From Escherichia phage EP02SG, in sequence record PQ301181: 64,000 nt of DNA, one strand, 5' to 3'. Made by a program: the position numbers and the translations under genes. Below the pieces are notes generated by a model. That model was not told the origin of the DNA, made no database searches, and saw nothing but the letters and a program-made list of their open reading frames with translations. Below, piece after piece: positions 5,274 to 52,773 of this stretch. How positions within the stretch are numbered: position 1 is the first letter of the stretch; every line of letters starts with the position of its first letter.

Positions 5274-6221
5274 TTATTCTGCAAATAATTCAGTAACGTC
5301 TGAAATTACTTCATAACGACAAGTACGCATCTTAGCATCACCATAGTCAACTGGGATGGACACAACATCACGTGGATGAACTTTAACCTTAACAACTTTA
5401 TCTGAGCTAGAACCAAAGTAACGAATATATGATTTAGCACAAACATGTAGACCACGGGAACAAGTTTGAGTATCATCATCGTTAACACGAGTACGAGGCA
5501 TTGAAACAACTTTACCAGGCGAGTTATCAAATGTGCCGCTATAGCAATCTAAATAGTCCTTACGAACTACTTTCCATGCGTAGAAATGCCCATCTTCAGT
5601 GATTTCAATATCGTTTGCAACCAAGAAGTCGAATAAACGTTGTACAGCTTTTTCACTTGGGTTTTCTAACAGGTTTTCAAGGAATGGCAGATAGAATTTA
5701 AAGTCTTCGCCTTTTTCCATGGAATCAATAATACGATTAACCAGTCCTGAACGAATTTCTATACCTTGATAAAATAAACTACCACCTTCAATAGTAACAT
5801 TACCGTCAACAAACTTACTAATAGCTTTCTTGATGTTAATAAGTTCGACAGCTTTACTAAGGTTTCCTGCGACCAAATTAGCTTTAATTTCTTCAAAATT
5901 TGCATGACTTGATGGGGTCGCATTGTATGCTACGCGTCCTTCAATAATTGAAATAAATTTAGATGACGCGTTCCATACGATTTCTGGACGATGACCGCCG
6001 ATAATAGGTTCATCATTTTCTGGAACTTCTTCGATTACATAAGAGGCATCGTTTGCTTCAGGGACAACGCCTTCTGCTTTAAAATTCTTAACAATCTTAC
6101 GAAGAGTATCTGTTGAAATGTCGAAGTAATCGGCAATTTCTTTACGAGTCCATTTGCCTGATTCAACCAGGCCATAAGCTTCTAACTGTTCTTCTTGGGA
6201 CAAGCATTTAATATTGTACAT
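5274..6221 (-). CDS. rIIB: rIIB protein
   Basis: 315-aa track ORF; MYNIKCL... N-term and C-terminal block FYAWKVVR...DDDTQTCSRGLHVC...KVKVHPRDVVSIP match remembered T4 rIIB. Confidence 0.9.
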   Translation of the reverse strand: MYNIKCLSQEEQLEAYGLVESGKWTRKEIADYFDISTDTLRKIVKNFKAEGVVPEANDASYVIEEVPENDEPIIGGHRPEIVWNASSKFISIIEGRVAYNATPSSHANFEEIKANLVAGNLSKAVELINIKKAISKFVDGNVTIEGGSLFYQGIEIRSGLVNRIIDSMEKGEDFKFYLPFLENLLENPSEKAVQRLFDFLVANDIEITEDGHFYAWKVVRKDYLDCYSGTFDNSPGKVVSMPRTRVNDDDTQTCSRGLHVCAKSYIRYFGSSSDKVVKVKVHPRDVVSIPVDYGDAKMRTCRYEVISDVTELFAE

Positions 6222-6230
6222 AATGTTTCC

Positions 6231-8444
6231 TTATTTGGCCGCTTCCACGGCCTTCATGAATTTAACGATTTGAGCGACTTGTTCTTTAGAAAGAGTACCA
6301 CGTCGTCCCATGTAGTCTGACACAATATGATAATTGGTTTCGAATTCAATAACCATTTTATCATCATTATCGTAAGCATTATCTTTAAGCTTATCGAAAA
6401 TTTTAGCACACAATTCTAACTTCTTATTCAGTTCTGTATTAGTAGCACCTGCGAATCGATTCCATCCCCAACGATTATTTACTGTTGAGAGTTTTGCAAA
6501 ATCTTTACTGATTTCTTTGTTTTTAGAGCTAAAATACTTACTAAGGAAGTTAAGCTCTTCATTACGAGTAATATGATTCAAATAAGGCTGTGCTCTACGA
6601 CTTGGTGATACATACTCATCATAATCCACTTTATCGATTAGCGTAATATAGTCATTAATTGATTTTTCGAACAAGCATTCTACTTCACCAAGTTTACGAA
6701 CTTTCTTAGCAATCTGTGGACGAACTACAGTGAACTCTTTAATACCTGACAAATCAGCAATACGGGTCAAGAAATTGGAGTCATAGTTCAACCAACCTTT
6801 ATCTGCGTCAAGACATTCAGCATTAGAACGATTACGAATTACAACATAACCTTGAATCTCATCAGCTTTACCGGCCGGAATAAAGAGATCTTCTGATACC
6901 CAAACATCGTTTTCATTCTTAAAGAACCGATGAGCACTTGGGGATTTAGGACGAGGCTGTGATGAACGTTCTTTAACTTCAATCCACGGTTTAACTAATG
7001 CAAGAATTTCAGATGTCTTATAAAATTTAAGGCTATCACCAGCGAAAATAACCTTTAATCGTTCCAGAAGTTTCATTGCAACTTCATCTTCCGGGTTAAC
7101 GAATAATACGCTACTACCCCATCCGGAAGGAACCTTATCAACGAGTGTTGATGCATCGGTGGAAGTCAAAGCATCGTTCAGAGCACGCATCATTGGTACG
7201 CGGCCTTTCACATCGTCAATAACAATATCAATATGCTTACGACTAATACCTAACAGGCTATTAATTGAAATAGTTGAAGACGAGCTTCCGCTTTCACGAA
7301 TACGACGAAGTCGTGGGTCTGAAACTATATCGTATACGACGCCGAGATTACACCATTCAGGTCCCATTTTAAAACGTTTGTACAACTCAGAATAGGTTAG
7401 TTGTTCTTTAGAATATTTCAGTGATTCAATATTAGAACCGGCTTTTTCCATGTATTTACGAGCAGAGTAACCAAGAGAATCGATTTCACGGAATACATGA
7501 CGTGGATATTCACAATCAATCCATTTCTTAGAATCTTCAGCGAACAATTTAGCATCGATTTCTGCAACGCGTTTATGGATATTTGCTACAGTACGTTTAT
7601 CAAATGACAATGCTTCACGAGACGGGGCTACATCTAGTTCACCCATAGGGAATTTAATATAAGCTGTAGTGCATCGCGTCATCATCCATGTTTGTTCTTT
7701 AATAACACTTCCAATTGGATATACAATACCACCATAAACAGCCATGATATTACCACGTTCACCCCATGGAGCTTCCTTGGCTAAATAAACATCATCGAAT
7801 TCCGGGAAGTATTTGATATCTTTAACACCACGAACTTCTGCAATATCACCTAGAGGACGCATAACATATGCAATTTCGGATGCGAACTTTTCAAAATCTT
7901 CCGGGTTAACCGGTACAACTACTTCTACACCCGTACGGTCATCAGGACCCATCTTATCTACAAAGGTCGGCTTAATTTGTGGACCTGTGTCATCTTGGTA
8001 GATTACGTAACCACGAACTTCACCGTTGTGATAAGACGTAAGGTTAAATGTATCGGTATATGCTAGCGGAGCTTTAGAGCCGAGTCCGAATCCACCAATG
8101 AAATCGTTACTCGATGTTTTAGTTGAAGCAAAATATGAGTTATAGATTCCTGGCTCTTCGTCATTACCTCTAATGGTGAAATCACTCATACCAGGACCAA
8201 AGTCTCGAACTACAAAACGTGGGTCTAAACGACCTGGAGCCTGAACAATAAACTTATCAGTGCAACCATTAAGAATTTGTCCATCAATACAGTTTGTGAT
8301 TAATTCACGTACACAAGCCAATTCTTTGTTTGTATAAAGGTCATTAGACAAAATCTTATAAACTTTGCTATTGCCTTGAATAGTGAATGCTGTGCTCTTA
8401 CCGCCTGAACCAATAATCGTTTCTTTAGCCGTTTCAATAATCAT
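6231..8444 (-). CDS. rIIA: rIIA protein (GHKL-type ATPase fold)
   Basis: 737-aa track ORF; N-term MIIETAKETIIGSGGKS...VRELITNCIDG...GRLDPRFVVRDFGPGMS matches remembered T4 rIIA; adjacent to rIIB. Confidence 0.9.
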   Translation of the reverse strand: MIIETAKETIIGSGGKSTAFTIQGNSKVYKILSNDLYTNKELACVRELITNCIDGQILNGCTDKFIVQAPGRLDPRFVVRDFGPGMSDFTIRGNDEEPGIYNSYFASTKTSSNDFIGGFGLGSKAPLAYTDTFNLTSYHNGEVRGYVIYQDDTGPQIKPTFVDKMGPDDRTGVEVVVPVNPEDFEKFASEIAYVMRPLGDIAEVRGVKDIKYFPEFDDVYLAKEAPWGERGNIMAVYGGIVYPIGSVIKEQTWMMTRCTTAYIKFPMGELDVAPSREALSFDKRTVANIHKRVAEIDAKLFAEDSKKWIDCEYPRHVFREIDSLGYSARKYMEKAGSNIESLKYSKEQLTYSELYKRFKMGPEWCNLGVVYDIVSDPRLRRIRESGSSSSTISINSLLGISRKHIDIVIDDVKGRVPMMRALNDALTSTDASTLVDKVPSGWGSSVLFVNPEDEVAMKLLERLKVIFAGDSLKFYKTSEILALVKPWIEVKERSSQPRPKSPSAHRFFKNENDVWVSEDLFIPAGKADEIQGYVVIRNRSNAECLDADKGWLNYDSNFLTRIADLSGIKEFTVVRPQIAKKVRKLGEVECLFEKSINDYITLIDKVDYDEYVSPSRRAQPYLNHITRNEELNFLSKYFSSKNKEISKDFAKLSTVNNRWGWNRFAGATNTELNKKLELCAKIFDKLKDNAYDNDDKMVIEFETNYHIVSDYMGRRGTLSKEQVAQIVKFMKAVEAAK

Positions 8445-29085: not shown

Positions 29086-29634
29086 TTAACGAGCCCATTT
29101 GATAATTTCTGTAATCAAATAATTACGTTCGCTTGCATTAAATCCTATAACTTTGTTAGCACCGTCATGATTAAGTAATTGATACGTTTGGATTTTGTTA
29201 TGAATTGCAAACTCTTCAAAATATGAAATGACTGTATTAAAACCGAATGAAGACAAAGTAATAAGGTCGTCTTCAAAACTTTCAGTCATTTCGTTACGTG
29301 TTAAAATAATTGTGAACACATCATGGTTTTGGCAAAGACGAACATAATCCTGTTCATAAACATCAAGAACCGAGTCCGCATCTTGTCGAATACGTCCATA
29401 AACCCAGTTACTAATATATCCACGGTCTAACAGATAAATCTTAGTAGGGTCTAAATAATTCAACATCGTTTCGAAACAACCAACTTCATTTCGAGACTTA
29501 ACATCGAAACGTCCATCAACTGTTCGTTTAGGGAAATCAATCTTTACATATCTTTCACTAATTTCCATTATGTCATTAATGAAAGTTGTTTTACCAGCAT
29601 TATCCGGGCCATCTACTAAAATAATTTTAGCCAT
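29086..29634 (-). CDS. P-loop kinase (nucleoside/nucleotide or sugar kinase-like)
   Basis: 182-aa track ORF; Walker A GPDNAGKTT at N-terminus; start within 2 nt of upstream ORF stop. Confidence 0.55.
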   Translation of the reverse strand: MAKIILVDGPDNAGKTTFINDIMEISERYVKIDFPKRTVDGRFDVKSRNEVGCFETMLNYLDPTKIYLLDRGYISNWVYGRIRQDADSVLDVYEQDYVRLCQNHDVFTIILTRNEMTESFEDDLITLSSFGFNTVISYFEEFAIHNKIQTYQLLNHDGANKVIGFNASERNYLITEIIKWAR

Positions 29635-29635
29635 T

Positions 29636-30535
29636 TTATTCCTCGATTACGACATCTTCATATTTAGGTATATTATACGGCGAAGAAATTAAAGCATTAA
29701 AGTAGATGAACTCGCCAAGACCTGGATGGAATACTTCTTCAGGATTTTCGAAATATTGAATCTTCGGACGTCCTTTAAGAATTTGATAGTACTCAGTTTT
29801 AGTTGGATTAAAAATTCGAATCAGCGCTTCTTCAGGATACTTATTTCTGTCGAAACTATTATTTGGATCAGTTATATAAAGCGGTTGACCTAATTGAATT
29901 GCGCATTCAACCACTTGTTCAAAACGATAGCATGGGTCACTAATTCGAAATGGATGAAAAATACCATCTAGATGAATAGGAGCCAAATCACCTACAAGAC
30001 GCTGCATGACGGAAGGACGTATAACTTTCTGTGTTACGATAATCTTATTACCATCTGCACCTGCGTTAACCAGCACTTCTTTTTGACGTTCATTCAACAC
30101 AGTAGTTTGAAGTGAACGATTAACAGACAACATGTCGGTTTTTAAGAATTCATCAATATAAAAACGTGGTTTATTAGGGTCTGCAGTGATATTGAAATTG
30201 AATTCTACGTCAAAAGCGCCATCATATCCAGTGATATCTGTGATTAGAAAATCACAATCATAATAAGCAATTAATGAATCAACCACAAATTCATTTTCAG
30301 ACCAGAAATATTTACGAGTGTTATACGCGTTATCTTTATACCATAATGGAACAAACTTAAATTCCGGAAAAAGACGTTCGCATTCTTTAATATCAGATGC
30401 ATTACGTGGATATGTAATCACATCACCTGGATTAGCACGGTGCAAATGAAGTTGGAAGTTGCCATCCTTAAGGATAGCATACTGACCAGTTTCATAAGAC
30501 CGCATACTCAAGATAGGTACACGGAAAATAGCCAT
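29636..30535 (-). CDS. hypothetical protein (299 aa) at the T4 beta-gt position
   Basis: Track ORF; start overlaps gp42 stop at 30535; no recognisable resemblance to T4 beta-glucosyltransferase. Confidence 0.5.
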   Translation of the reverse strand: MAIFRVPILSMRSYETGQYAILKDGNFQLHLHRANPGDVITYPRNASDIKECERLFPEFKFVPLWYKDNAYNTRKYFWSENEFVVDSLIAYYDCDFLITDITGYDGAFDVEFNFNITADPNKPRFYIDEFLKTDMLSVNRSLQTTVLNERQKEVLVNAGADGNKIIVTQKVIRPSVMQRLVGDLAPIHLDGIFHPFRISDPCYRFEQVVECAIQLGQPLYITDPNNSFDRNKYPEEALIRIFNPTKTEYYQILKGRPKIQYFENPEEVFHPGLGEFIYFNALISSPYNIPKYEDVVIEE

Positions 30536-31251
30536 TAGTCAAGGAATCCTTTAACATAATCAAAATCACGTTCAAACACATGGGCACTTACCATGGTATG
30601 AGTATAATCACCAACTTCTACACCACATTCATTAGCGATATAATGAAGTAATTTTCCTTGGAGATAAAAATCCAACTGCATAACAACAGCACAGTTCTGA
30701 GAACGCATATGACAGTGGGTATAAAGCTTACCATCACGAATATAATAAGTCACTGAGTCAGTACATGGATATTCAAGTGTTTCGTCCGAATCAAGCAAAG
30801 CCTGATCTGAACTTTCTAGAATTTGGAACACAACTCTTCGGGAGTTAGGCTTCTCTTTAAGTTCTTTTAGAAGAGCTGGTAATTGGGCCGCAATGCGAGG
30901 ACCATAGAAAGTGTTGAAGTTCGCCGGCAAAACATCTGATTTTGGTTTAGAAATAAATTTAGCGACATTAGGATATGCCTTAAACGCTTCTTCTGCGTTG
31001 GTACCACCAGAAATCATAAACTTCCAGAAGTCTTCGGCATATTCATAAGAGATGCGGTTAATACGTGGGTCGGTCATTTTGAATGATGATGGAGTGTCAA
31101 CAACTACTGTCATAGACCCAATTTCATTACAACGTCCAATACGAGAATCAGTTACGAATTCCGGGTTTTCTAAAATTTCACGATTGACTGCTTTAAATGC
31201 GGTTTGAAAATCTGCGGCTTTAATATATTTCATTGTGTTATGTTTTCCCAT
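30535..31251 (-). CDS. 42: dCMP hydroxymethylase gp42 (thymidylate synthase family)
   Basis: 238-aa track ORF; TS-fold block PCTDSVTYYIRDGKLYTHCHMRSQNCAVVMQLDFYLQGKLLHYIANECGVEVGDYTHTMVSAHVF; length and position match gene 42 rather than td. Confidence 0.8.
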   Translation of the reverse strand: MGKHNTMKYIKAADFQTAFKAVNREILENPEFVTDSRIGRCNEIGSMTVVVDTPSSFKMTDPRINRISYEYAEDFWKFMISGGTNAEEAFKAYPNVAKFISKPKSDVLPANFNTFYGPRIAAQLPALLKELKEKPNSRRVVFQILESSDQALLDSDETLEYPCTDSVTYYIRDGKLYTHCHMRSQNCAVVMQLDFYLQGKLLHYIANECGVEVGDYTHTMVSAHVFERDFDYVKGFLD

Positions 31252-31269: not shown

Positions 31270-31295
31270 ATTATATACTCAATTCATAAAGCTTA
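31270..31295 (-). promoter_or_regulatory. possible MotA-type middle promoter upstream of gene 42
   Basis: rc: TAAGCTTTA - 11 nt - TATAAT then GAGGTAAAC SD and ATG at 31251; one mismatch to MotA box. Confidence 0.35.
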
Positions 31296-31374
31296 TTTGA
31301 ATTTCTTAGCGATGTTGATATAACGTAAAGCTTCAGCATCGATATTTCCAAGAACACTATGAAGAAATGCATCA

Positions 31375-31533
31375 GCGTAGTATTCTAGTTGAACAGGTTT
31401 CTTTAATCACTTTAGCCGCTTTAGTTTCAAACAGGCCCATAAGGGCCTTTTTAAGAATTTGTTCGTTGCTGTTAATTTTAATAGTCAAAATCTCTTCGTT
31501 AAGTTGGTGGTTAAAAGTTTTTCTAGAAATCAT
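31375..31533 (-). CDS. small hypothetical protein (about 52 aa)
   Basis: Hand-translated MISRKTFNHQLNEEIL...; ATGA overlap with stop of the 386-aa ORF; coordinates approximate. Confidence 0.25.
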
Positions 31534-32690
31534 TCTGGGTACCTCAAAGCGTCATCAGAGTTAGTTATATCAATAATAGATATAGAGTTTTCTGATAACC
31601 CATTTTTAGATAACTGACGTTTATAATATCTTTCACAATATGTACACGTCGTCCCACAGATTTCATTAGCACAATCGAAATCTGGATGTTTGAACCACCT
31701 TTTTTCTAAAAAGCCGTCTAACAAAGAGGTTTCAATATTTACCGTATGTGAAAACTCAGTCTCATTTTCAAGAGTGAAAATGGTCTCTAAAGGCTTCCAC
31801 AATTCCAACAAATTACCTTCAAACTTTTCAGAAGCGTAAGCTTCAAGAACTTTTAAAATGTAGTCGGTGCTACCTGTACGTCCTGAAACTTTAAATTGAG
31901 TGATACCAATATCATTATAAAGTTTCAAATCTTGAGGACGAACAAAACGAGTTCTCAACCAGTTAAATGGATCTGTATCACGAGCTTTAATACAGTGTTG
32001 CATTGGATATCCATTTAAAGATTTGGCATCATCTACTGTAACATCGGTGCTATGGAAAATATAGCAAGAGTCACGATAGCTACAATGTGTTGTATACCCT
32101 TTACCAGCATTAGAACAGAACTCATTTACAAGAACTTCAAATATTATATTGTTCTTATTGCAAAACTCTGCTGCACGCTTCAGGAAAGAAACTGAACGGT
32201 TCTTATGAATTCCACAACAGACCTTTTTGATATTATACTGGTCATGCAAGTATTTGATTTGAGTTACAGCATCAACATGTAGAATTGTTGAAACTTCAAT
32301 CTCAATGTCTTTATTGACTTCACGAACAATTTCCATAACAACAGGGTTAGCGATAGTAATACGCCATACGCCTATTGACCAAAGATACTGAACATAATCC
32401 TGAATAGCTTTCTTCTTCCACTCAACTAGTTCTCTTTTTGAACCAGGATTTATCGTGTTGAGTGTATAGTTAAAGCAAATACCTAATTCGTTACAACGTT
32501 TAACGTAATCTTCTAACATCTTTTTGTCAACGTCAGGAAGCCTAAAATCAGGTCTGGCTGCTACAAAAGCCATTTCTCTTGTAGAGCCGTATACTTCGTT
32601 TATCAAGCTATTAGGATAAGTTTTATTGAGCTCTACGATTTTATCAAGAAGAGCTAAATCAAAATTCGTTCCGATTTTAAAAGTATTCAT
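31530..32690 (-). CDS. Cys-rich putative metalloenzyme (386 aa), possibly TIM-barrel/Fe-S (peptidase U32-like?)
   Basis: Track ORF; Cys clusters NEFCSNAGKGYTTHCSYRDSCYIF and CANEICGTTCTYCERYY; family assignment uncertain. Confidence 0.5.
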   Translation of the reverse strand: MNTFKIGTNFDLALLDKIVELNKTYPNSLINEVYGSTREMAFVAARPDFRLPDVDKKMLEDYVKRCNELGICFNYTLNTINPGSKRELVEWKKKAIQDYVQYLWSIGVWRITIANPVVMEIVREVNKDIEIEVSTILHVDAVTQIKYLHDQYNIKKVCCGIHKNRSVSFLKRAAEFCNKNNIIFEVLVNEFCSNAGKGYTTHCSYRDSCYIFHSTDVTVDDAKSLNGYPMQHCIKARDTDPFNWLRTRFVRPQDLKLYNDIGITQFKVSGRTGSTDYILKVLEAYASEKFEGNLLELWKPLETIFTLENETEFSHTVNIETSLLDGFLEKRWFKHPDFDCANEICGTTCTYCERYYKRQLSKNGLSENSISIIDITNSDDALRYPE

Positions 32691-32753: not shown

Positions 32754-33140
32754 TTATAGATTCGGTTTATATGATTTAAATGTTTCGAATTCGCCTTTAT
32801 TCATAAGAGCTTTGAATTCGTCAGGACGCATAGCTTTGTCGTCGATAATCCAATCATATACTGGTTTATGTGTTAGCAAATTATGGTACTTCAATCCAAT
32901 GTTTGCCAAGTTCTGAATCAGACTTGGGAGAATGTCAATTGCTATACGACCAGGACCGACTGACTTCATACCGCGAGCAGTGTAAAGCGTTATGGTATGC
33001 CCTGCATCATACAGGGCATTAATGGCAGACACCATTTCGACGTCTGGTTTGAAGTTCACGTAATCACGATTGTTATTCCACTCTGTTATACAATCATCGA
33101 CATCAAAACAAAGATTAAGCATGTTTTCTACACGGTGCAT
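32754..33140 (-). CDS. HAD-superfamily sugar-phosphate phosphatase (KdsC-like)
   Basis: Track ORF 32754..33155 trimmed to MHRVEN (TAATG overlap with upstream stop); HAD motif I FDVDDCIT, motif II TLYTARG, motif IV WIIDDK. Confidence 0.55.
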   Translation of the reverse strand: MHRVENMLNLCFDVDDCITEWNNNRDYVNFKPDVEMVSAINALYDAGHTITLYTARGMKSVGPGRIAIDILPSLIQNLANIGLKYHNLLTHKPVYDWIIDDKAMRPDEFKALMNKGEFETFKSYKPNL

Positions 33141-34828
33141 TAGATTCGTTCCCATTGATGAGTGATATCGCCACCGATTGGACGATAAGAAACACCAGTT
33201 TCTTTATCAGTTAGTACCCATTTACCAGGATTTTTTGTAATCAGAGTAGCCGTTACAGGTTCTGCTACATCATAACTAATAGTGCCGTCCTGAAGTACAC
33301 GGCCCATGTTACGTAATTGCTTAGTCAGAAGTTCCATACCTTTATAATATGCGGCTACCGCTTTAAGTGGATTATTCTTGAAATAACCACCTAATGCAAT
33401 CCAGATAATTGCCACTGCCAAATGATGATACTCGTTAAACGAACTCATCTTTCCATATTTGTAAACTAACGGATTGATGTTAATAGTCACATTACAAGTT
33501 GTTTCATCAATAGTAAACTGTCCCCAAGTCGGATTAGCGTTGAATTCATCATAACCTGAAACAGCGTAAAGCACTTTAGCTTCATCATACAATTTTGGCC
33601 CATAAATCTTGGTTTCACCAAAATATCCACGAGGGTCGATAAACTTGACTTCACCATTATCAGTAATCATAGTATTACTGAAGTTCGGGTCACCATGAAT
33701 AACAGAGTACTGTCCCTGAGAACGGTTATGATAACGAATAAGGTGTTCTAAAGCTTGTTTCAACATTGGCTTCAGACGCCCAATCTTAGTGTAGTTCACA
33801 TGTGTGATTTTACCAAATGAATCAATCAATGGTTGAATACTTTCACAACGATCAATAACTTTAGTATAGAATTCTTTAGTGAAATCACGACGAACAGTTT
33901 CAGGACTTACAAAATAAGTGTCTGTGCTGAATTTCAGTGCATCTAAAATTGCATCAATAATTTGTGGACGAGCAAGACTTGATTTGGATTTAATATATTC
34001 AAATGCTGGCTTACCTTTAATACGTTCCATAATAAAGTGGCCGCCAGGATGATAACTTACAATCCGTGGAACTGAATCTGATTTAACTTTCTTATACCAA
34101 TTGACTTCATCTTTTTGAAGTGCAACGCCCTGTTCTGTTAAAGCAATCTTTGTTACCGTTTCTTCGCCAATTTCAACTGCATTAAAACTACGATTAAGTT
34201 CACGAACTTCATGAGCTTTTTCAAGTTTAGGCATATCACCAAGATCGATGATATTCATAAGCTCTGATTTATTGAATGCGCTGCCGTAAAGGAATTCTAC
34301 GAAATCACGTCCTTTGCAGTATTCATGAATTTCCTCATCAGTAGAACCCATATAGAATTCCCAGTCTTTGAACTGATAAATTCCTACAACATTACCACCT
34401 GTTGAACCTACATTAGTGATATTTTCACCGTCGAAATTATATCGACATTCGTCACCCTTAACATAGATTGCGTTAACATTCCAAGACCACGAACCAAAAT
34501 CAGGAATAATATCACACCAGTTAACAATTACATTATGGCCGTCTAAATCTTTGTGCAATTTAGCAAGAGCATAAGCAGAACCATACGCTTCATCAACTGT
34601 ACGAATAGTCACATTGAACCCTTCTTGCTCACAATAAGCTCGAACAGTTTCAGCAAATTTTGAATGAACTACTACAATAATTTCATCTGCGCCAAGGTCA
34701 GAATAAATTGTATACAAATTGCTCAGAATAGTGTCTTGTTTATAGTTAACAAGCACCTTAGGAATATGATGCGTTATTGGATACAAACGAGTTGCCAGTC
34801 CAGCACCAAGAATAACAGCTTTTTTCAT
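33140..34828 (-). CDS. bifunctional sugar-1-phosphate nucleotidyltransferase / sugar kinase
   Basis: 562-aa track ORF; N-term MKKAVILGAGLATRLYPIT..PKVLV (RmlA/GalU-type NTP-transferase); C-term HGDPNFSNTMI...FIDPRG (APH/choline-kinase Brenner motif); TGAGGA SD. Confidence 0.65.
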   Translation of the reverse strand: MKKAVILGAGLATRLYPITHHIPKVLVNYKQDTILSNLYTIYSDLGADEIIVVVHSKFAETVRAYCEQEGFNVTIRTVDEAYGSAYALAKLHKDLDGHNVIVNWCDIIPDFGSWSWNVNAIYVKGDECRYNFDGENITNVGSTGGNVVGIYQFKDWEFYMGSTDEEIHEYCKGRDFVEFLYGSAFNKSELMNIIDLGDMPKLEKAHEVRELNRSFNAVEIGEETVTKIALTEQGVALQKDEVNWYKKVKSDSVPRIVSYHPGGHFIMERIKGKPAFEYIKSKSSLARPQIIDAILDALKFSTDTYFVSPETVRRDFTKEFYTKVIDRCESIQPLIDSFGKITHVNYTKIGRLKPMLKQALEHLIRYHNRSQGQYSVIHGDPNFSNTMITDNGEVKFIDPRGYFGETKIYGPKLYDEAKVLYAVSGYDEFNANPTWGQFTIDETTCNVTININPLVYKYGKMSSFNEYHHLAVAIIWIALGGYFKNNPLKAVAAYYKGMELLTKQLRNMGRVLQDGTISYDVAEPVTATLITKNPGKWVLTDKETGVSYRPIGGDITHQWERI

Positions 34829-34869: not shown

Positions 34870-35013
34870 CTAGTTAAAGCATTCATACTTTGCTTGTAGT
34901 CCAATCATAATCCATCCGATTATAAGAGTCGGAATCATTACTGGAGCCGTTAAGCTCCAGTAGATAGTCATGACAAGCATCAATAGTAAAAGTCCTATTG
35001 TTATTGCTTTCAT
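34870..35013 (-). CDS. small membrane protein (about 47 aa)
   Basis: Hand-translated MKAITIGLLLLMLVMTIYWSLTAPVMIPTLIIGWIMIGLQAKYECFN; ATGA overlap with stop of the SIS-domain gene. Confidence 0.3.
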   Translation of the reverse strand: MKAITIGLLLLMLVMTIYWSLTAPVMIPTLIIGWIMIGLQAKYECFN

Positions 35014-35645
35014 TGTTCGCCTCGTAACATGGCACCTAGTGCACCGCCGGGGTGGAACTTAAGGAAGTCATTAGAGGTAAATCCACGTTCAGACGAAAGG
35101 TTGATAGCAAACGTATCGATAAGCGCTAACAACAATGTAGTGGACATGGTCGGAGCCAGAGAATTCTCATCAACCTCTACTGCGATGCCTGTACAGAACG
35201 TATAATCAAAAAGAGCTTCGTATTCTTGTGGAATGTCCGGGTTACAATGCAACAGAATCTGTTTGACGTTCGGACGAATCATTTTAAGATGCTTAGCCAC
35301 GCCTATCATTTCTTCAGTTTTACCAGAACGACTAATATGAATCAACACATCATTAGGCGCAATGAATCCTGCATCACCGTGAGAATAATGCCCAGTGTTC
35401 AAGTACATACTCGGGATACCGAGTGAAGCAAATGTCTCAGAAGCTTTAGTTGCAATATTAGCATTCTTACCAACACCTGTAATAATTACTCGGCTTTCAT
35501 AATTACTAAGTCCTGGGCGTCGAAGAGTTTCTAGAATAGCATTATAACGAGCAGGGTTTTGACTAATTACTTTGGCCATAGCGGCCAAAGAAGAAGCTTG
35601 TTTTATGATTGCGTCAATAGCGATAGTAATAGGAGTAGTTTTCAT
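35010..35645 (-). CDS. SIS-domain sugar-phosphate isomerase, arabinose-5-phosphate isomerase (KdsD/GutQ/KpsF)-like
   Basis: 211-aa track ORF; ITGVGKNANIATKASETFASLGIPS...HGDAGFI...VLIHISRSGKTEE...LAPTMSTTLLLALIDTF...FHPGGALG match SIS/API signature; no CBS domains. Confidence 0.7.
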   Translation of the reverse strand: MKTTPITIAIDAIIKQASSLAAMAKVISQNPARYNAILETLRRPGLSNYESRVIITGVGKNANIATKASETFASLGIPSMYLNTGHYSHGDAGFIAPNDVLIHISRSGKTEEMIGVAKHLKMIRPNVKQILLHCNPDIPQEYEALFDYTFCTGIAVEVDENSLAPTMSTTLLLALIDTFAINLSSERGFTSNDFLKFHPGGALGAMLRGEQ

Positions 35646-50018: not shown

Positions 50019-50489
50019 TTAATCATGTTTCCACACCCCATCGGTATTTGACCAAAGTCGCTGATTATCTGATCCTCGCCACATCTTTTTAGTCGGAAGA
50101 TTTTTCTCATACTTCCCATCAATAATAACATCAACATATTTAAGCATTTCTAGTTGTTTAATATCTTCAAACTTATATCCTGTCCACAACCAAATGCTTT
50201 TATTGGGATAAAGATTTTTTACTGTTTGAGCAATGCAATGAACAACATCTCTGTTATCGGGATAGAGAGGGTCTCCTCCAGTTATAGTTAATCCTTCTAT
50301 ATAATCATTATTCAAACATTCAATTAATTGCTCTAGTGTTTCACCCGTGAATGGAATACCATTTCTAGCGTTCCATGTTGATTTATTATAACACCCTTCG
50401 CATTTATGCAAACAACCTGTAACGAAAAGAACGACCCTGCAACCAGGGCCATTCACAAAATCGCAAGGATAAAATCTATCATAATTCAT
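50019..50489 (-). CDS. nrdG: anaerobic ribonucleotide reductase activating protein NrdG (radical SAM)
   Basis: 156-aa track ORF; CLHKCEGC (Cx3Cx2C) and match to remembered T4 NrdG. Confidence 0.85.
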   Translation of the reverse strand: MNYDRFYPCDFVNGPGCRVVLFVTGCLHKCEGCYNKSTWNARNGIPFTGETLEQLIECLNNDYIEGLTITGGDPLYPDNRDVVHCIAQTVKNLYPNKSIWLWTGYKFEDIKQLEMLKYVDVIIDGKYEKNLPTKKMWRGSDNQRLWSNTDGVWKHD

Positions 50490-52303
50490 TGGTGTTTAAC
50501 CCTATGCATGATTTCTTTATTTTTGCCGAGATTAAATCCGCGTTCGTTAGGATTTCCAAGATAACCGCATGTTCTTCTTATGGTGTTCATCTTTTTAGGG
50601 TCAGTTTCTCCGCAAACTGAACAAACAAATCCGTTTTCAGTAGGAGTCATTTCATGGGTACTTCCACACGTAAAACATTTATCTACTGGCATGTTAACAC
50701 CAAAATAATCTAAATGTTGCGCAGCATAATCCCAGACAGCCTCAAGACCTTTTAAGTTATTTTTCATATCAGGAAGTTCAACATAAGAAATGTGTCCGCC
50801 AGTCGCAATGAAATGATATGGCGCTTCACGAGAAATCTTTTCAAACGGAGTAATATTTTCTTCTACTGAAACATGGAAACTATTAGTGTACCAGCCTTTA
50901 TCAGTAACATCTTTTACACTTCCATATTTTTCTGTATCAAGTTTACAGAAGCGATAACAAAGGTTTTCAGCAGGAGTAGAATACAAGCTAAAAGCAAAAC
51001 CGGTTCTTTCAGTCCACTGCTTAAGACGAGCATTCATTTTAGTTAAAATTTCCTGTCCAATATCACGTCCGACAAGAATATTCAATTCGTGAATACCAAT
51101 GTATCCTAAGGACACTGAACTTCTACCGTTTTTAAATAACTCAATTATATCGTCATCAGGTTTAAGACGAACCCCGAATGCACCTTCTTGGTAAAGAATA
51201 GGAGCAACTGTTGCTTTAACACCCTTTAAAGAACTAATTCTACACATCAAGGCTTCAAAACACAGATCCATTCGTTCATTAAATAGCTCAACAAATTTCT
51301 GTTCATTGAATTGTGTTCCAATATAAGAATCTAACGCAATACGAGGAAGATTCAGTGTTACAACACCAAGATTATTACGTCCATCAAGAATTTCATTACC
51401 GGTCGAATCTTTCCATACACTCAAGAAACTACGACAACCCATTGGAGAAACAGGAATAGATGAACCAGTGATAGCTTTATTGTTCTTAGCTGAAATAATA
51501 TCAGGATACATTCTTTTGCTTGCGCACTCTAGAGCAAGCTGCTTAATATCATAGTTCGGATCGTCTTTATAAAGATTAACACCTTCTTCAACGAACATAA
51601 CAAGCTTAGGGAAAATAGGAGTTATTCCATCACGACCAAGGCCTTTAATGCGGTTTTTAAGAATTGCCTTCTGAATAATTCGTTCAGTCCAGTCAGTTCC
51701 AGTACCAAATGTAATTGTCACAAAAGGCGTTTGTCCGTTTGAACTAAAGAGAGTATTTACTTCATACTCATAAGCTTGAAATGCATCGTATACGTCTTTT
51801 TCTGTTTTAGATTGGGCATAATTCAACGCATCAGCGATTTGCCATTTTTCTGCATCCTCAATATGTTTTGCATATGTGCGTTTAACATAAGGAGAAAGAA
51901 CTTTATCAACATTCGCAAATGTAGTTCCACCATACTGATGTGAAGCAACCTGTGCGGTAATTTGTGCCATAATTGCAGTAGCAACACCAATCGATTTAGG
52001 CGTTTCAATTTGAGCATTGCCTAATTTAAATCCGTTTTCAAGCATTCCTTTTAAATCTACTAAACAACAATTAGTAAATGGAAGAGCAGGGGAATAATCA
52101 ATATCATGGAAATGGATAATTCCGCTTTCATGTGCTTTCATAATAAAAGACGGGACCATATTTTTGGCAATGTGCTTAGACACAATACCAGCCATAAGGT
52201 CCCGTTGAGTTGGAAAAACACGAGAATCTTTATTAGCATTCTCGTTCAAAAGATCTTTATTAGTTTTATGAATTAATCCTTCAATTTCTTTTTCAATTTT
52301 CAT
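50486..52303 (-). CDS. nrdD: anaerobic ribonucleoside-triphosphate reductase NrdD (glycyl radical enzyme), intronless
   Basis: 605-aa single track ORF; C-terminal Zn ribbon CFTCGS...CSVCG and glycyl radical motif RRTCGYLG. Confidence 0.9.
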   Translation of the reverse strand: MKIEKEIEGLIHKTNKDLLNENANKDSRVFPTQRDLMAGIVSKHIAKNMVPSFIMKAHESGIIHFHDIDYSPALPFTNCCLVDLKGMLENGFKLGNAQIETPKSIGVATAIMAQITAQVASHQYGGTTFANVDKVLSPYVKRTYAKHIEDAEKWQIADALNYAQSKTEKDVYDAFQAYEYEVNTLFSSNGQTPFVTITFGTGTDWTERIIQKAILKNRIKGLGRDGITPIFPKLVMFVEEGVNLYKDDPNYDIKQLALECASKRMYPDIISAKNNKAITGSSIPVSPMGCRSFLSVWKDSTGNEILDGRNNLGVVTLNLPRIALDSYIGTQFNEQKFVELFNERMDLCFEALMCRISSLKGVKATVAPILYQEGAFGVRLKPDDDIIELFKNGRSSVSLGYIGIHELNILVGRDIGQEILTKMNARLKQWTERTGFAFSLYSTPAENLCYRFCKLDTEKYGSVKDVTDKGWYTNSFHVSVEENITPFEKISREAPYHFIATGGHISYVELPDMKNNLKGLEAVWDYAAQHLDYFGVNMPVDKCFTCGSTHEMTPTENGFVCSVCGETDPKKMNTIRRTCGYLGNPNERGFNLGKNKEIMHRVKHQ

Positions 52304-52773
52304 TTTAAACTCTTTCTAAGCTGCTTTTTGAATGAAGCTATTAATTGTGTTTTGGTATCAGATTCATTATATTCAAATCCTCTTTGAAGCATCTCAGCCA
52401 TCATTTCCTCTTTACCTAGTCTTGAGAACTCTTTAGTTTTGTCTGGAACAAAATTAGGATGGATATTATTATCAGAATAATCTTGTTTCAAATAAGCAAG
52501 AAGAGCTTCAAGCCATTCGAGGTAGTCGACATCACGTCCTTTAAGACCTGAACGGTTGAACTTATGCTTCATTTGACCTTCTGCTGCGTTGCACAGATTA
52601 CAGAGTAACCCACGAACTCTACCTGCTTTTGGCCCGTTTAATTCGTGGTCGTGGTCAAGATGGTTACCTTGAACATCAGGGTCTAATTCACGGTGGCAAA
52701 TAGGACACTTACCATTCTGTGCATCATAAAATTTTTGTTTTTCTTCTTTATATTTTGCGCCTGATAATAACAT
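52300..52773 (-). CDS. 49: endonuclease VII gp49 (Holliday junction resolvase)
   Basis: 157-aa track ORF; MLLSGAKYKEEKQKFYDAQNGKCPIC...HLDHDHELNGPKAG.VRGLLCNLCN near-identical to remembered T4 gp49. Confidence 0.9.
   Translation of the reverse strand: MLLSGAKYKEEKQKFYDAQNGKCPICHRELDPDVQGNHLDHDHELNGPKAGRVRGLLCNLCNAAEGQMKHKFNRSGLKGRDVDYLEWLEALLAYLKQDYSDNNIHPNFVPDKTKEFSRLGKEEMMAEMLQRGFEYNESDTKTQLIASFKKQLRKSLK

Follow-up and report, generated by a model that had tools for sequence, protein, structure and literature searches.

What does the cysteine-rich protein do whose gene lies in the DNA-modification cluster of Escherichia phage EP02SG? In the 64,000-nucleotide stretch of this phage that we analysed (PQ301181, hereafter the window), the gene occupies 31530..32690 on the minus strand and runs from ATG to stop, encoding 386 amino acids (aa); the open reading frame (ORF) given in the first-pass annotation stands, its translation being identical. 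The window shares 97-98% identity with the genomes of the Mosigviruses ZQ3, HY126, JS09, F2 and ST0, which are RB69-like T-even phages, and what had been described as a sugar cluster is the arabinosyl-5-hydroxycytosine DNA-modification cluster of RB69-like phages. Its order, all on the minus strand, is gp43 DNA polymerase, SIS isomerase, kinase/nucleotidyltransferase, HAD phosphatase, the gene in question (hereafter the U32 gene, after its protein family), a small ORF, a ThyA homolog, a glycosyltransferase, a P-loop kinase and UvsX. RB69 DNA carries arabinosylated 5-hydroxycytosine (5hoC), and the ThyA homolog gp48 of RB69 makes 5-hydroxy-deoxycytidine monophosphate (5-hydroxy-dCMP, 5hodCMP) with flavin mononucleotide (FMN) and molecular oxygen, as demonstrated by 18O2 labelling (PMC13326640, 2026). 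We propose that the U32 protein, an ortholog of RB69 gp50 (NP_861740), is a prephenate-dependent iron-sulfur (Fe-S) enzyme that hydroxylates C5 of a cytosine deoxynucleotide without oxygen, most likely converting dCMP into 5hodCMP. On balance we consider this probable, with modest confidence, and we are somewhat more confident of the broader claim that the protein is a hydroxylase and supplies DNA modification with a 5-hydroxypyrimidine. Neither the gene nor its U32 label is new. What we add is the proposal of a viral prephenate-dependent, O2-independent deoxynucleotide hydroxylase with a virus-encoded supply of the oxygen donor; the searchable literature, which did not cover He 2026 and Mahler 2025, holds neither this proposal nor any link of U32 proteins to phage 5hoC or phage chorismate mutase.

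The first-pass annotation had assigned the protein to no known family, which is not borne out. The Pfam model Peptidase_U32 (PF01136) matches residues 94-286 with 42.4 bits against a gathering cutoff of 22.4 (E=6e-11), and the name "peptidase U32" already stands in several public records. The kinship with the O2-independent hydroxylases of this family, suggested earlier from a loose likeness of the first cysteine cluster, is supported by the Pfam match, the fold and a shared FK[IV]xGR motif. An AlphaFold2 model (predicted local distance difference test 89.7, predicted template modelling score 0.88) is a TIM-like beta/alpha barrel, in agreement with the alternation of hydrophobic strands seen earlier, and its fold matches 5D88 (Mk0906), a solved U32 structure. 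This entry was found by fold comparison only, as a single-protein sequence search of the PDB gave no match; a fold search of BFVD returned further orthologs only. Assignment to a KdsA/NeuB-like synthase had been named as an outcome that would speak against the U32 hydroxylase idea. Neither DAHP_synth_1 nor NeuB matched in Pfam or NCBIfam, and KdsA/NeuB-like folds rank among the generic TIM-barrel matches only, well below 5D88. The FK[IV]xGR motif is common to the E. coli paralogs and the phage protein, where it reads FKVSGR (31878..31892, minus strand) and is the counterpart of FKIEGR in RlhA, TrhP and UbiU. Its K267 and R271 are 100% conserved among 124 representatives of family clusters (24-49% identity), the set that we used for conservation. 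Judged by these comparisons, the phage protein belongs to the U32 family and forms a separate subfamily of its own, which comprises 442 clusters (50% identity) found at E<=1e-30 in a set of 1.84 billion representatives; almost all of them have about 360 aa.

Both cysteine clusters that had been pointed out are present in the translation and conserved across the 124 representatives. Cluster 1 (31992..32117, minus strand), with the arrangement EFC192-X10-C203-X5-C209...C233, is the predicted [4Fe-4S] site of the U32 core. C192, C203 and C233 are conserved in 100% of the set, and C209 is found in most of it, with a column score of 60% that arises partly from a CX5C/CX7C spacing shift. Cluster 2 (31635..31673, minus strand), C340-X4-C345-X3-C349-X2-C352, is predicted to form a second site for a metal or an Fe-S cluster, one peculiar to this subfamily; its four cysteines are about 95% conserved, with a spacing that varies as C-X(2-4)-C-X(2-3)-C-X2-C (3-2-2, 4-3-2, 3-3-2 and 4-2-2). 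In an alignment of 23 members with 46-85% identity, ten cysteines are invariant. Since they persist across representatives with only 24-49% identity, the clusters are not a product of chance, and they rank with the most conserved features of the family. The gene is under strong purifying selection. In comparisons with Clarke_MM3, Entb_45 and PM2, phages of three other genera, the proportion of synonymous differences is 0.74-0.80 (saturated) and that of nonsynonymous differences 0.09-0.11, and against PM2, the sole comparison with an estimable dS, dN/dS is about 0.03. In the Escherichia phage OLB35 the gene is annotated as two proteins of 269 and 108 aa (BFVD A0A3G3MCS7 and A0A3G3MCT7), a split due either to a frameshift in that genome or to an error in its sequencing. 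A radical SAM reading of the C-terminal CGTTCTYC (CX3CX2C) was rejected, as there is no Radical_SAM match in Pfam; moreover, the motif is C-terminal, has four cysteines and varies in spacing across the family.

Among the four E. coli U32 paralogs, RlhA is the best match to the family profile (hhalign E=8.8e-6 over 202 columns), and E190, C203 and C209 of the phage protein fall on E161, C169 and C176 of RlhA. These three residues are essential for 5-hydroxycytidine formation by RlhA (PMC5727448), and the equivalent residues of TrhP are likewise essential (PMC6599085). Alignments to the single sequences of UbiU, UbiV and TrhP were too weak for mapping ligands. Within the family, rlhA is needed for C5-hydroxylation of a cytidine in rRNA and requires prephenate synthesis and Fe-S (PMC5727448), and trhP is needed for C5-hydroxylation of a tRNA uridine, depends on prephenate and Fe-S and works anaerobically, whereas the unrelated TrhO needs O2 (PMC6599085). 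UbiU and UbiV each bind one [4Fe-4S] and replace the flavin/O2 hydroxylases in anaerobic ubiquinone synthesis, and for this pair prephenate has been proven as the oxygen donor by 18O labelling (PMC10990095).

Public databases label the gene as peptidase, protease, hypothetical protein or "putative enzyme involved in UDP-arabinose biosynthesis". Taken at its word, the family name, which Pfam, MEROPS, the PHROG and many GenBank annotations share, would make the protein a collagenase-like peptidase. We consider this extremely unlikely, as the U32 "peptidase" activity has no known catalytic basis (PMC5727448). The conserved features of the phage protein are its cysteine clusters, and the gene travels with genes for nucleotide metabolism, DNA modification and the shikimate pathway. 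T4-type phages also carry their own, unrelated prohead protease. RB69 gp50 itself, which belongs to PHROG 5757 ("peptidase"), has the same cluster position and does not differ from the window's protein in sequence terms. It appears in Table 1 of PMC13326640 as "Sugar or heterocycle reductase", a label given without experiment to a protein whose fold matches 5D88; the paper makes no mention of U32, RlhA or prephenate.

A first line of evidence on the chemistry comes from the genes that adjoin the U32 gene. In the Enterobacter phage Entb_45, the U32 gene and the ThyA homolog flank, and both overlap, a gene for a 79-aa chorismate mutase of the AroQ type (Pfam CM_2 E=2.4e-10), and in the Shewanella phage Thanatos-2, in which the cluster is rearranged, the adjacency of U32 gene and chorismate mutase is kept. 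A tblastn search found chorismate mutase homologs in 56 phage records, 55 of which are T4-like, come from U32-bearing genera and have the match beside the ThyA homolog. The remaining one, MT836175, was set aside: here the match falls within a 373-aa protein, of which it forms one domain, and the contig is unverified and has no U32 gene. In addition to 15 T4-like loci from IMG/VR, we collected about 45 non-T4-like loci (32 from IMG/VR, 6 from metagenome assemblies and 7 from metagenome-assembled genomes, MAGs) on contigs of up to 466 kb, with U32 proteins that are 40-55% identical. Chorismate mutase follows the U32 gene in 13 of the 15 T4-like loci. Among the 32 non-T4-like IMG/VR loci it is present in ten, as a standalone gene right after U32 in six and as a DAHP (3-deoxy-D-arabino-heptulosonate 7-phosphate)-synthase/chorismate-mutase fusion one gene upstream of U32 in the other four (Pfam E=2.5e-36 and 7.9e-18). 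In two further non-T4-like loci U32 is immediately followed by a DAHP-synthase-like gene, and chorismate mutase is present in four of the seven MAG loci. Altogether, chorismate mutase and/or DAHP synthase adjoin U32 in 13/15 T4-like and about 16/45 other loci. We considered whether the DAHP_synth_1 neighbours are 3-deoxy-D-manno-octulosonate 8-phosphate (KDO8P) synthases, which would tie them to arabinose-5-phosphate, and rejected this; NCBIfam favours a Bacillus-type DAHP synthase with 151-237 bits over KDO8P synthase with 50-63 bits, all of these scores lying below the curated cutoffs. The U32 gene thus has phage genes for the entry step of the shikimate pathway and for prephenate formation beside it in at least four architectures, which would be hard to explain unless the U32 enzyme consumes prephenate. 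Most other U32-bearing genera bring their own chorismate mutase, and the Mosigviruses would have to draw prephenate from PheA/TyrA of the host.

A second line of evidence is the distribution of the U32 gene relative to the O2-dependent hydroxylase. In the window, the ThyA-homolog 5hodCMP synthase (RB69 gp48 type; 30535..31251, minus strand; Pfam Thymidylat_synt) lies about 280 bp downstream of the U32 gene and carries the published signature L143E, D169N and N177D, the same as in RL38J1 and Mokit; the dependence of this enzyme type on FMN and O2 is published (PMC13326640). Among phage records, 373 contain the synthase and 221 the U32 gene. For phages of Klebsiella (26 records each), Proteus (7 each) and Yersinia (6 each) the two numbers are equal, for Escherichia they are 136 for U32 and 176 for the ThyA homolog, and for Acinetobacter and Rhizobium U32 is found in none against 57 and 20 records, respectively, with the ThyA homolog. 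All U32-bearing isolates examined infect facultative anaerobes (Enterobacterales, Shewanella), and the gene is absent from phages of strict aerobes that carry the O2-dependent enzyme. The U32 slot is empty in Acinetobacter phage Mokit and Pseudomonas phage PspYZU05. As the phosphatase gene almost abuts the ThyA homolog in these two phages and in the E. coli Dhakavirus CLB_P2, the U32 gene, with or without chorismate mutase, can be regarded as an optional insert upstream of the O2-dependent hydroxylase. The Dhakaviruses keep the O2-dependent 5hodCMP synthase and the sugar genes and have neither U32 nor chorismate mutase; in CLB_P2 a 178-aa ORF (L009:6468-7004) sits at the position of the Mosigvirus U32 gene, with a weak P-loop (cmk-like) match only.

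The proximity of the two genes could also mean that the U32 protein, itself no hydroxylase, serves the FMN-dependent ThyA-like synthase as a redox partner, either as an electron-transfer protein or as a flavin/heterocycle reductase. Two conserved Cys4 sites would suit Fe-S clusters, the neighbour is a flavoenzyme gene, and the "heterocycle reductase" part of the label in Table 1 of PMC13326640 points the same way. Yet the ThyA homolog alone suffices to yield 5-hydroxydeoxycytidine (5hodC) in E. coli (PMC13326640), U32 is missing from about 150 phage records that contain the ThyA homolog, and about 45 loci have U32 with no ThyA-type hydroxylase nearby. As the linkage to chorismate mutase is also left unaccounted for, we rate such a partnership as very unlikely.

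Those roughly 45 non-T4-like loci also bear on the proposed hydroxylation. For these loci the ThyA search employed a family hidden Markov model (HMM) at maximum sensitivity on six-frame translations, which recovered the homolog in all 15 T4-like loci. No gene of the 5hodCMP-synthase type was found within 6-10 kb of U32 in the non-T4-like loci, and the HMM gave no match in the MAG loci. In 554 kb of non-T4-like sequence (+-10 kb) the HMM yielded one canonical gene and one weak partial match at a locus edge. The canonical gene, shared by L035 and L093 (about 5491-6357), lies about 4 kb upstream of U32 in a 230-kb uncultured phage. It was rejected as a 5hodCMP synthase, as it has the residues of a canonical thymidylate synthase (E58, W80, L143, D169 and N177). 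Its detection implies that the HMM would have found ThyA homologs elsewhere if they were present. The U32 genes of the uncultured phages are placed in replication and nucleotide modules, next to genes for DNA glycosyltransferase, Tmk-like kinases, MazG/dUTPase-like pyrophosphatases, dCMP deaminase, uracil-DNA glycosylase, NT5C/dNK and DNA polymerase III alpha. Full-length homologs of the window's glycosyltransferase adjoin U32 in at least 17 of these loci (blastp). Six loci share the compact order primase, MazG-like, kinase, glycosyltransferase, U32, polymerase, and in two more the glycosyltransferase is directly upstream of U32. Exclusion of a canonical deoxynucleotide, a kinase for the modified monophosphate and glycosylation of the DNA together demand that some enzyme create the hydroxyl acceptor, and U32 is the only candidate for such a hydroxylase in the non-T4-like clusters. 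In a scan of cellular genomes the subfamily occurred in 7 of 185,579 species genomes, all on MAG contigs, six of which come from obligately anaerobic lineages.

The same neighbourhoods help to decide on the substrate. The characterised nucleic-acid U32 enzymes all act on polymers (PMC5727448, PMC6599085) and RlhA is the closest E. coli paralog, so that a U32 hydroxylase acting on host or phage tRNA or rRNA, or on cytosine already in DNA, has to be weighed. We think it unlikely. A Pfam scan of the phage protein detected the U32 domain only, without the DUF3656 of RlhA or the C-terminal domain of TrhP, and its neighbours are enzymes of the deoxynucleoside-monophosphate level (kinases, MazG/dUTPase, dCMP deaminase, NT5C, dNK) and DNA glycosyltransferases rather than RNA genes. 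RB69 encodes a dCTPase, as do the T-even phages, in which the dCMP pool feeds a mononucleotide-level pathway (PMC13326640); on this analogy the hydroxylase would be needed before replication.

A different role is suggested by the position of the window's U32 gene among the genes for the SIS isomerase, the AfhE-like enzyme and the HAD phosphatase. Here the protein would make or tailor the activated arabinose donor, and both the H31 annotation and the Table 1 label in PMC13326640 agree with this; in at least 17 non-T4-like loci, too, homologs of AfhE and of the SIS protein lie within a few genes of U32. Nevertheless, we regard a sugar role as quite unlikely. As summarised in PMC13326640, an isomerase, an AfhE-type and an AfhF-type enzyme take ribulose-5-phosphate to uridine diphosphate (UDP)-arabinofuranose without any U32 protein. 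DLP3, Mokit, PspYZU05 and the Dhakaviruses, including CLB_P2, lack U32 and possess both the sugar genes and the ThyA homolog, and the DNA of DLP3 is tri-arabinosylated all the same. Conversely, at least eight loci pair U32 with a glycosyltransferase and have no sugar-activation genes, among them the six compact loci and the two with a directly upstream glycosyltransferase, and L006, L007 and L016 have U32 with neither. No U32 member is known to use a sugar, and the linkage to chorismate mutase and DAHP synthase would go unaccounted for. The earlier suggestion of an enzyme hydroxylating or otherwise modifying a nucleotide or a sugar is supported, with the evidence favouring C5 of a cytosine deoxynucleotide over a sugar.

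Several of the uncultured loci stand out for their gene content. A dCMP-deaminase-family gene is directly upstream of or close to U32 in L006 (7447-8004), in L016 (5504-5929) and, as cluster c17, in L040, L043, L044 and L060; given this neighbour, the hydroxylated base there might be uracil (5-hydroxy-dUMP) instead of cytosine. L017 (3777-8486) and L041 combine glycosyltransferase, kinase, glycosyltransferase, U32, a TAGT-like transferase, dUTPase/DCD and UDP-galactopyranose mutase. They look like a complete cluster for a hexofuranosylated hydroxypyrimidine without a ThyA homolog, and are candidate loci for a novel DNA modification. In L006 (1-249), L007 (12160-13185) and L018 (3972-5000), a few genes from U32, there is also a gene for a radical-SAM/SPASM protein (about 340 aa) that could be a maturase or a partner enzyme; in L007 its neighbour is a very divergent further U32 paralog of 377 aa. 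No equivalent was found near the window's U32 gene.

Taken together, it is reasonable to propose that the U32 enzyme is the anaerobic counterpart of the FMN- and O2-dependent ThyA-like 5hodCMP synthase and would take over in anoxia, where the FMN/O2 enzyme cannot work. Following the scheme for UbiU/V, the C5-C6 system of dCMP would be oxidised by two electrons, which would be exported via the Fe-S site or sites of the enzyme, and decarboxylating prephenate would deliver hydroxide to C5 to give 5hodCMP and phenylpyruvate. Prephenate would thus furnish the hydroxyl oxygen as it does for UbiU/V and as has been proposed for RlhA and TrhP. Cysteine cluster 1 would bind the [4Fe-4S] of the catalytic domain, and the C-terminal Cys4 site may hold a metal or a second cluster that transfers electrons, an arrangement like that of the UbiU-UbiV heterodimer with its two clusters. 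The phage deoxynucleoside-monophosphate kinase, the host nucleoside-diphosphate kinase, DNA polymerase and the arabinosyltransferases would then act as published, so that 5hoC, the attachment point of arabinose on the DNA, could still be made when the facultatively anaerobic host grows without O2. In a like manner, the NrdD/NrdG pair backs up the aerobic ribonucleotide reductase of the phage. The data establish family membership, cysteine conservation, gene linkage and distribution; from these we infer the substrate, the use of prephenate, independence of O2 and metal binding. The wider picture, in which phages have two unrelated routes to 5-hydroxy-dCMP, have rewired the host's shikimate pathway, with a chorismate mutase and even a DAHP synthase of their own, to supply an oxygen donor and, in many uncultured phages of anaerobes, use U32 as the only hydroxylase, is one that we advance more tentatively, as a possibility falling just short of probable.

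A number of observations weigh against this proposal. In vitro hydroxylation is not yet shown for any U32 protein (PMC10990095). In terms of sequence, canonical U32 core cysteines are spaced CX6CX15CX3/4C, with CX6CX16CX38C as the UbiU variant, whereas the four conserved core cysteines of the phage protein are spaced C-X10-C-X5-C-X23-C. The PROSITE signature PS01276, E-x-F-x2-G-[SA]-[LIVM]-C-x4-G-x-C-x-[LIVM]-S, is present in RlhA, TrhP and UbiU and absent from the phage protein and UbiV. NCBIfam assigned no named equivalog; its sole match was UbiU, with 19 bits against a cutoff of 440. As to the locus, chorismate mutase was not found in this window, and neither FNR boxes, whose counts around the U32 gene were at chance level, nor any other signal of anaerobic regulation were found. 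A ThyA-type hydroxylase may lie more than 10 kb from U32 in the non-T4-like phages. Many of the non-T4-like loci carry sugar-activation genes next to U32, and hence context alone does not fully separate a role in base hydroxylation from one in sugar metabolism. The counts by host lifestyle are not independent of phylogeny, and the U32 gene is not obligatory even in enteric hosts, given that about 40 records of E. coli phages (Dhakavirus and similar) lack it and contain the ThyA homolog.

It is instructive to compare the phage protein with known systems. RlhA (YdcP), the E. coli synthase of 5-hydroxycytidine at C2501 of 23S rRNA, belongs to the same Pfam family, and the chemistry proposed for both is the same and concerns the same atom, C5 of cytosine; in both proteins, essential or conserved cysteines lie in the C-terminal part. 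However, RlhA has 653 aa including DUF3656 and acts on rRNA in a ribosome precursor, whereas the shorter phage protein has its own CX4CX3CX2C tail, a different core spacing and a proposed deoxynucleotide substrate. The pair TrhP/TrhO, which forms 5-hydroxyuridine at tRNA position 34, follows the same logic, in that one 5-hydroxypyrimidine is made by an O2-independent, prephenate-dependent U32 enzyme as well as by an unrelated enzyme that needs O2, and facultative anaerobes retain the two (PMC6599085). The O2-dependent partner there is a rhodanese; in the phage it is a ThyA-fold flavoenzyme, the proposed substrate is a DNA precursor and the two viral genes are adjacent. UbiU and UbiV also are U32 Fe-S proteins with aerobic flavin/O2 counterparts (UbiI/H/F) and possess two [4Fe-4S] per functional unit, the number that the two Cys4 sites of the phage protein would give; the fourth ligand of UbiU (C232) is distant, like C233 of the phage protein. 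Unlike the phage protein, they form a heterodimer, need the lipid-binding UbiT and act on a lipid. Finally, the CmoA/CmoX pathway to carboxymethylcytosine in phages has likewise borrowed prephenate-using tRNA-modification chemistry for DNA bases (PMC12783734), although with unrelated SAM (S-adenosylmethionine)-dependent enzymes and for another modification.

If the proposal is true, it gives a function to the one gene still without an assignment in a DNA-hypermodification cluster under study by three groups since 2018, and explains how phages of the gut can retain their anti-restriction modification where oxygen is absent. The protein would be the first U32 hydroxylase from a virus and the first with a small soluble substrate, and dCMP would offer a far easier in vitro system than a ribosome precursor, a tRNA or a lipid. 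Glycosylated 5-hydroxypyrimidine DNA would be made wholly without O2 in uncultured phages of anaerobes, and the combination of U32, chorismate mutase, glycosyltransferase and kinase without a ThyA homolog could serve as a flag for likely new modified DNA in many of them. Phages such as the Dhakaviruses, with the ThyA homolog and without U32, should then be handicapped in the absence of oxygen, which bears on phage therapy and host range.

The remaining genes of the cluster correspond to those of RB69. Downstream of the ThyA homolog, 29636..30535 (minus strand, as are all features below) encodes a DNA glycosyltransferase of the RB69 gp46:47 type, the predicted arabinosyltransferase 1 (PMC13326640, Table 1), and 29086..29634 a P-loop nucleotide kinase of the gp45 type (public annotation and the same table). 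In some genera (L012, L020, L024, L025, L031 and L032) the gp45-type kinase gene is upstream of U32 and not downstream of the glycosyltransferase gene. On the other side of U32 lie the HAD phosphatase (AfhF/RB69 gp51 type; 32754..33155; NCBIfam TIGR01689 E=4e-13), the bifunctional sugar kinase/nucleotidyltransferase (AfhE/RB69 gp52:53 type; 33140..34828; Pfam NTP_transferase and kinase-like matches) and the SIS-domain arabinose-5-phosphate isomerase (RB69 gp55 type; 35010..35645; Pfam SIS), all three described in PMC13326640. Farther away, the window encodes the anaerobic ribonucleotide reductase NrdD (50486..52303; Pfam NRDD E=3e-171 and Gly_radical) and its activase NrdG (50019..50489; Pfam Fer4_12 and Radical_SAM), and with these the phage is equipped for O2-free synthesis of DNA precursors. 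NrdG, NrdD and endonuclease VII stand in a row at 50019-52773, as in T4. By tblastn, NrdD occurs in 2,879 phage records, whose ten commonest host labels are enteric, Vibrio or Aeromonas together with the generic "Enterobacteria" and "Bacteriophage"; Acinetobacter is absent from these ten.

Between U32 and the ThyA homolog, the window has a frame-disrupted small gene of the phrog_8601 family (31293..31533). A one-base frame change breaks this gene (79-aa profile) into a 53-aa ORF (31372..31533), corresponding to profile positions 1-50, and a remainder, YYADAFLHSVLGNIDAEALRYINIAKKFK*, that reads in another frame. The same 53-aa coding sequence is annotated in phage 308Ecol101PP, so two or more Mosigvirus genomes share the split, which makes an error peculiar to the window less probable; the split could represent a pseudogene or a programmed frameshift. 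The idea that the 53-aa ORF is a decayed chorismate mutase was rejected, since it has no CM_2 match, and ORF and tail match phrog_8601 and gp045 of PM2. The latter phage has an intact 57-aa phrog_8601 ORF (gp045) followed by an 80-aa chorismate mutase. Sigma-70 promoters and terminators around the U32 gene occurred at chance-level counts. The Klebsiella phage Clarke_MM3 (L012) has neither the small ORF nor chorismate mutase, and its 44-nucleotide spacer between U32 and the ThyA homolog contains a terminator-like hairpin. In the T4-like loci L022, L027, L028 and L030, a 212-aa ORF (cluster c20) lies between the HAD and U32 genes; it is found elsewhere in other genera, the behaviour expected of a mobile gene of the homing-endonuclease type.

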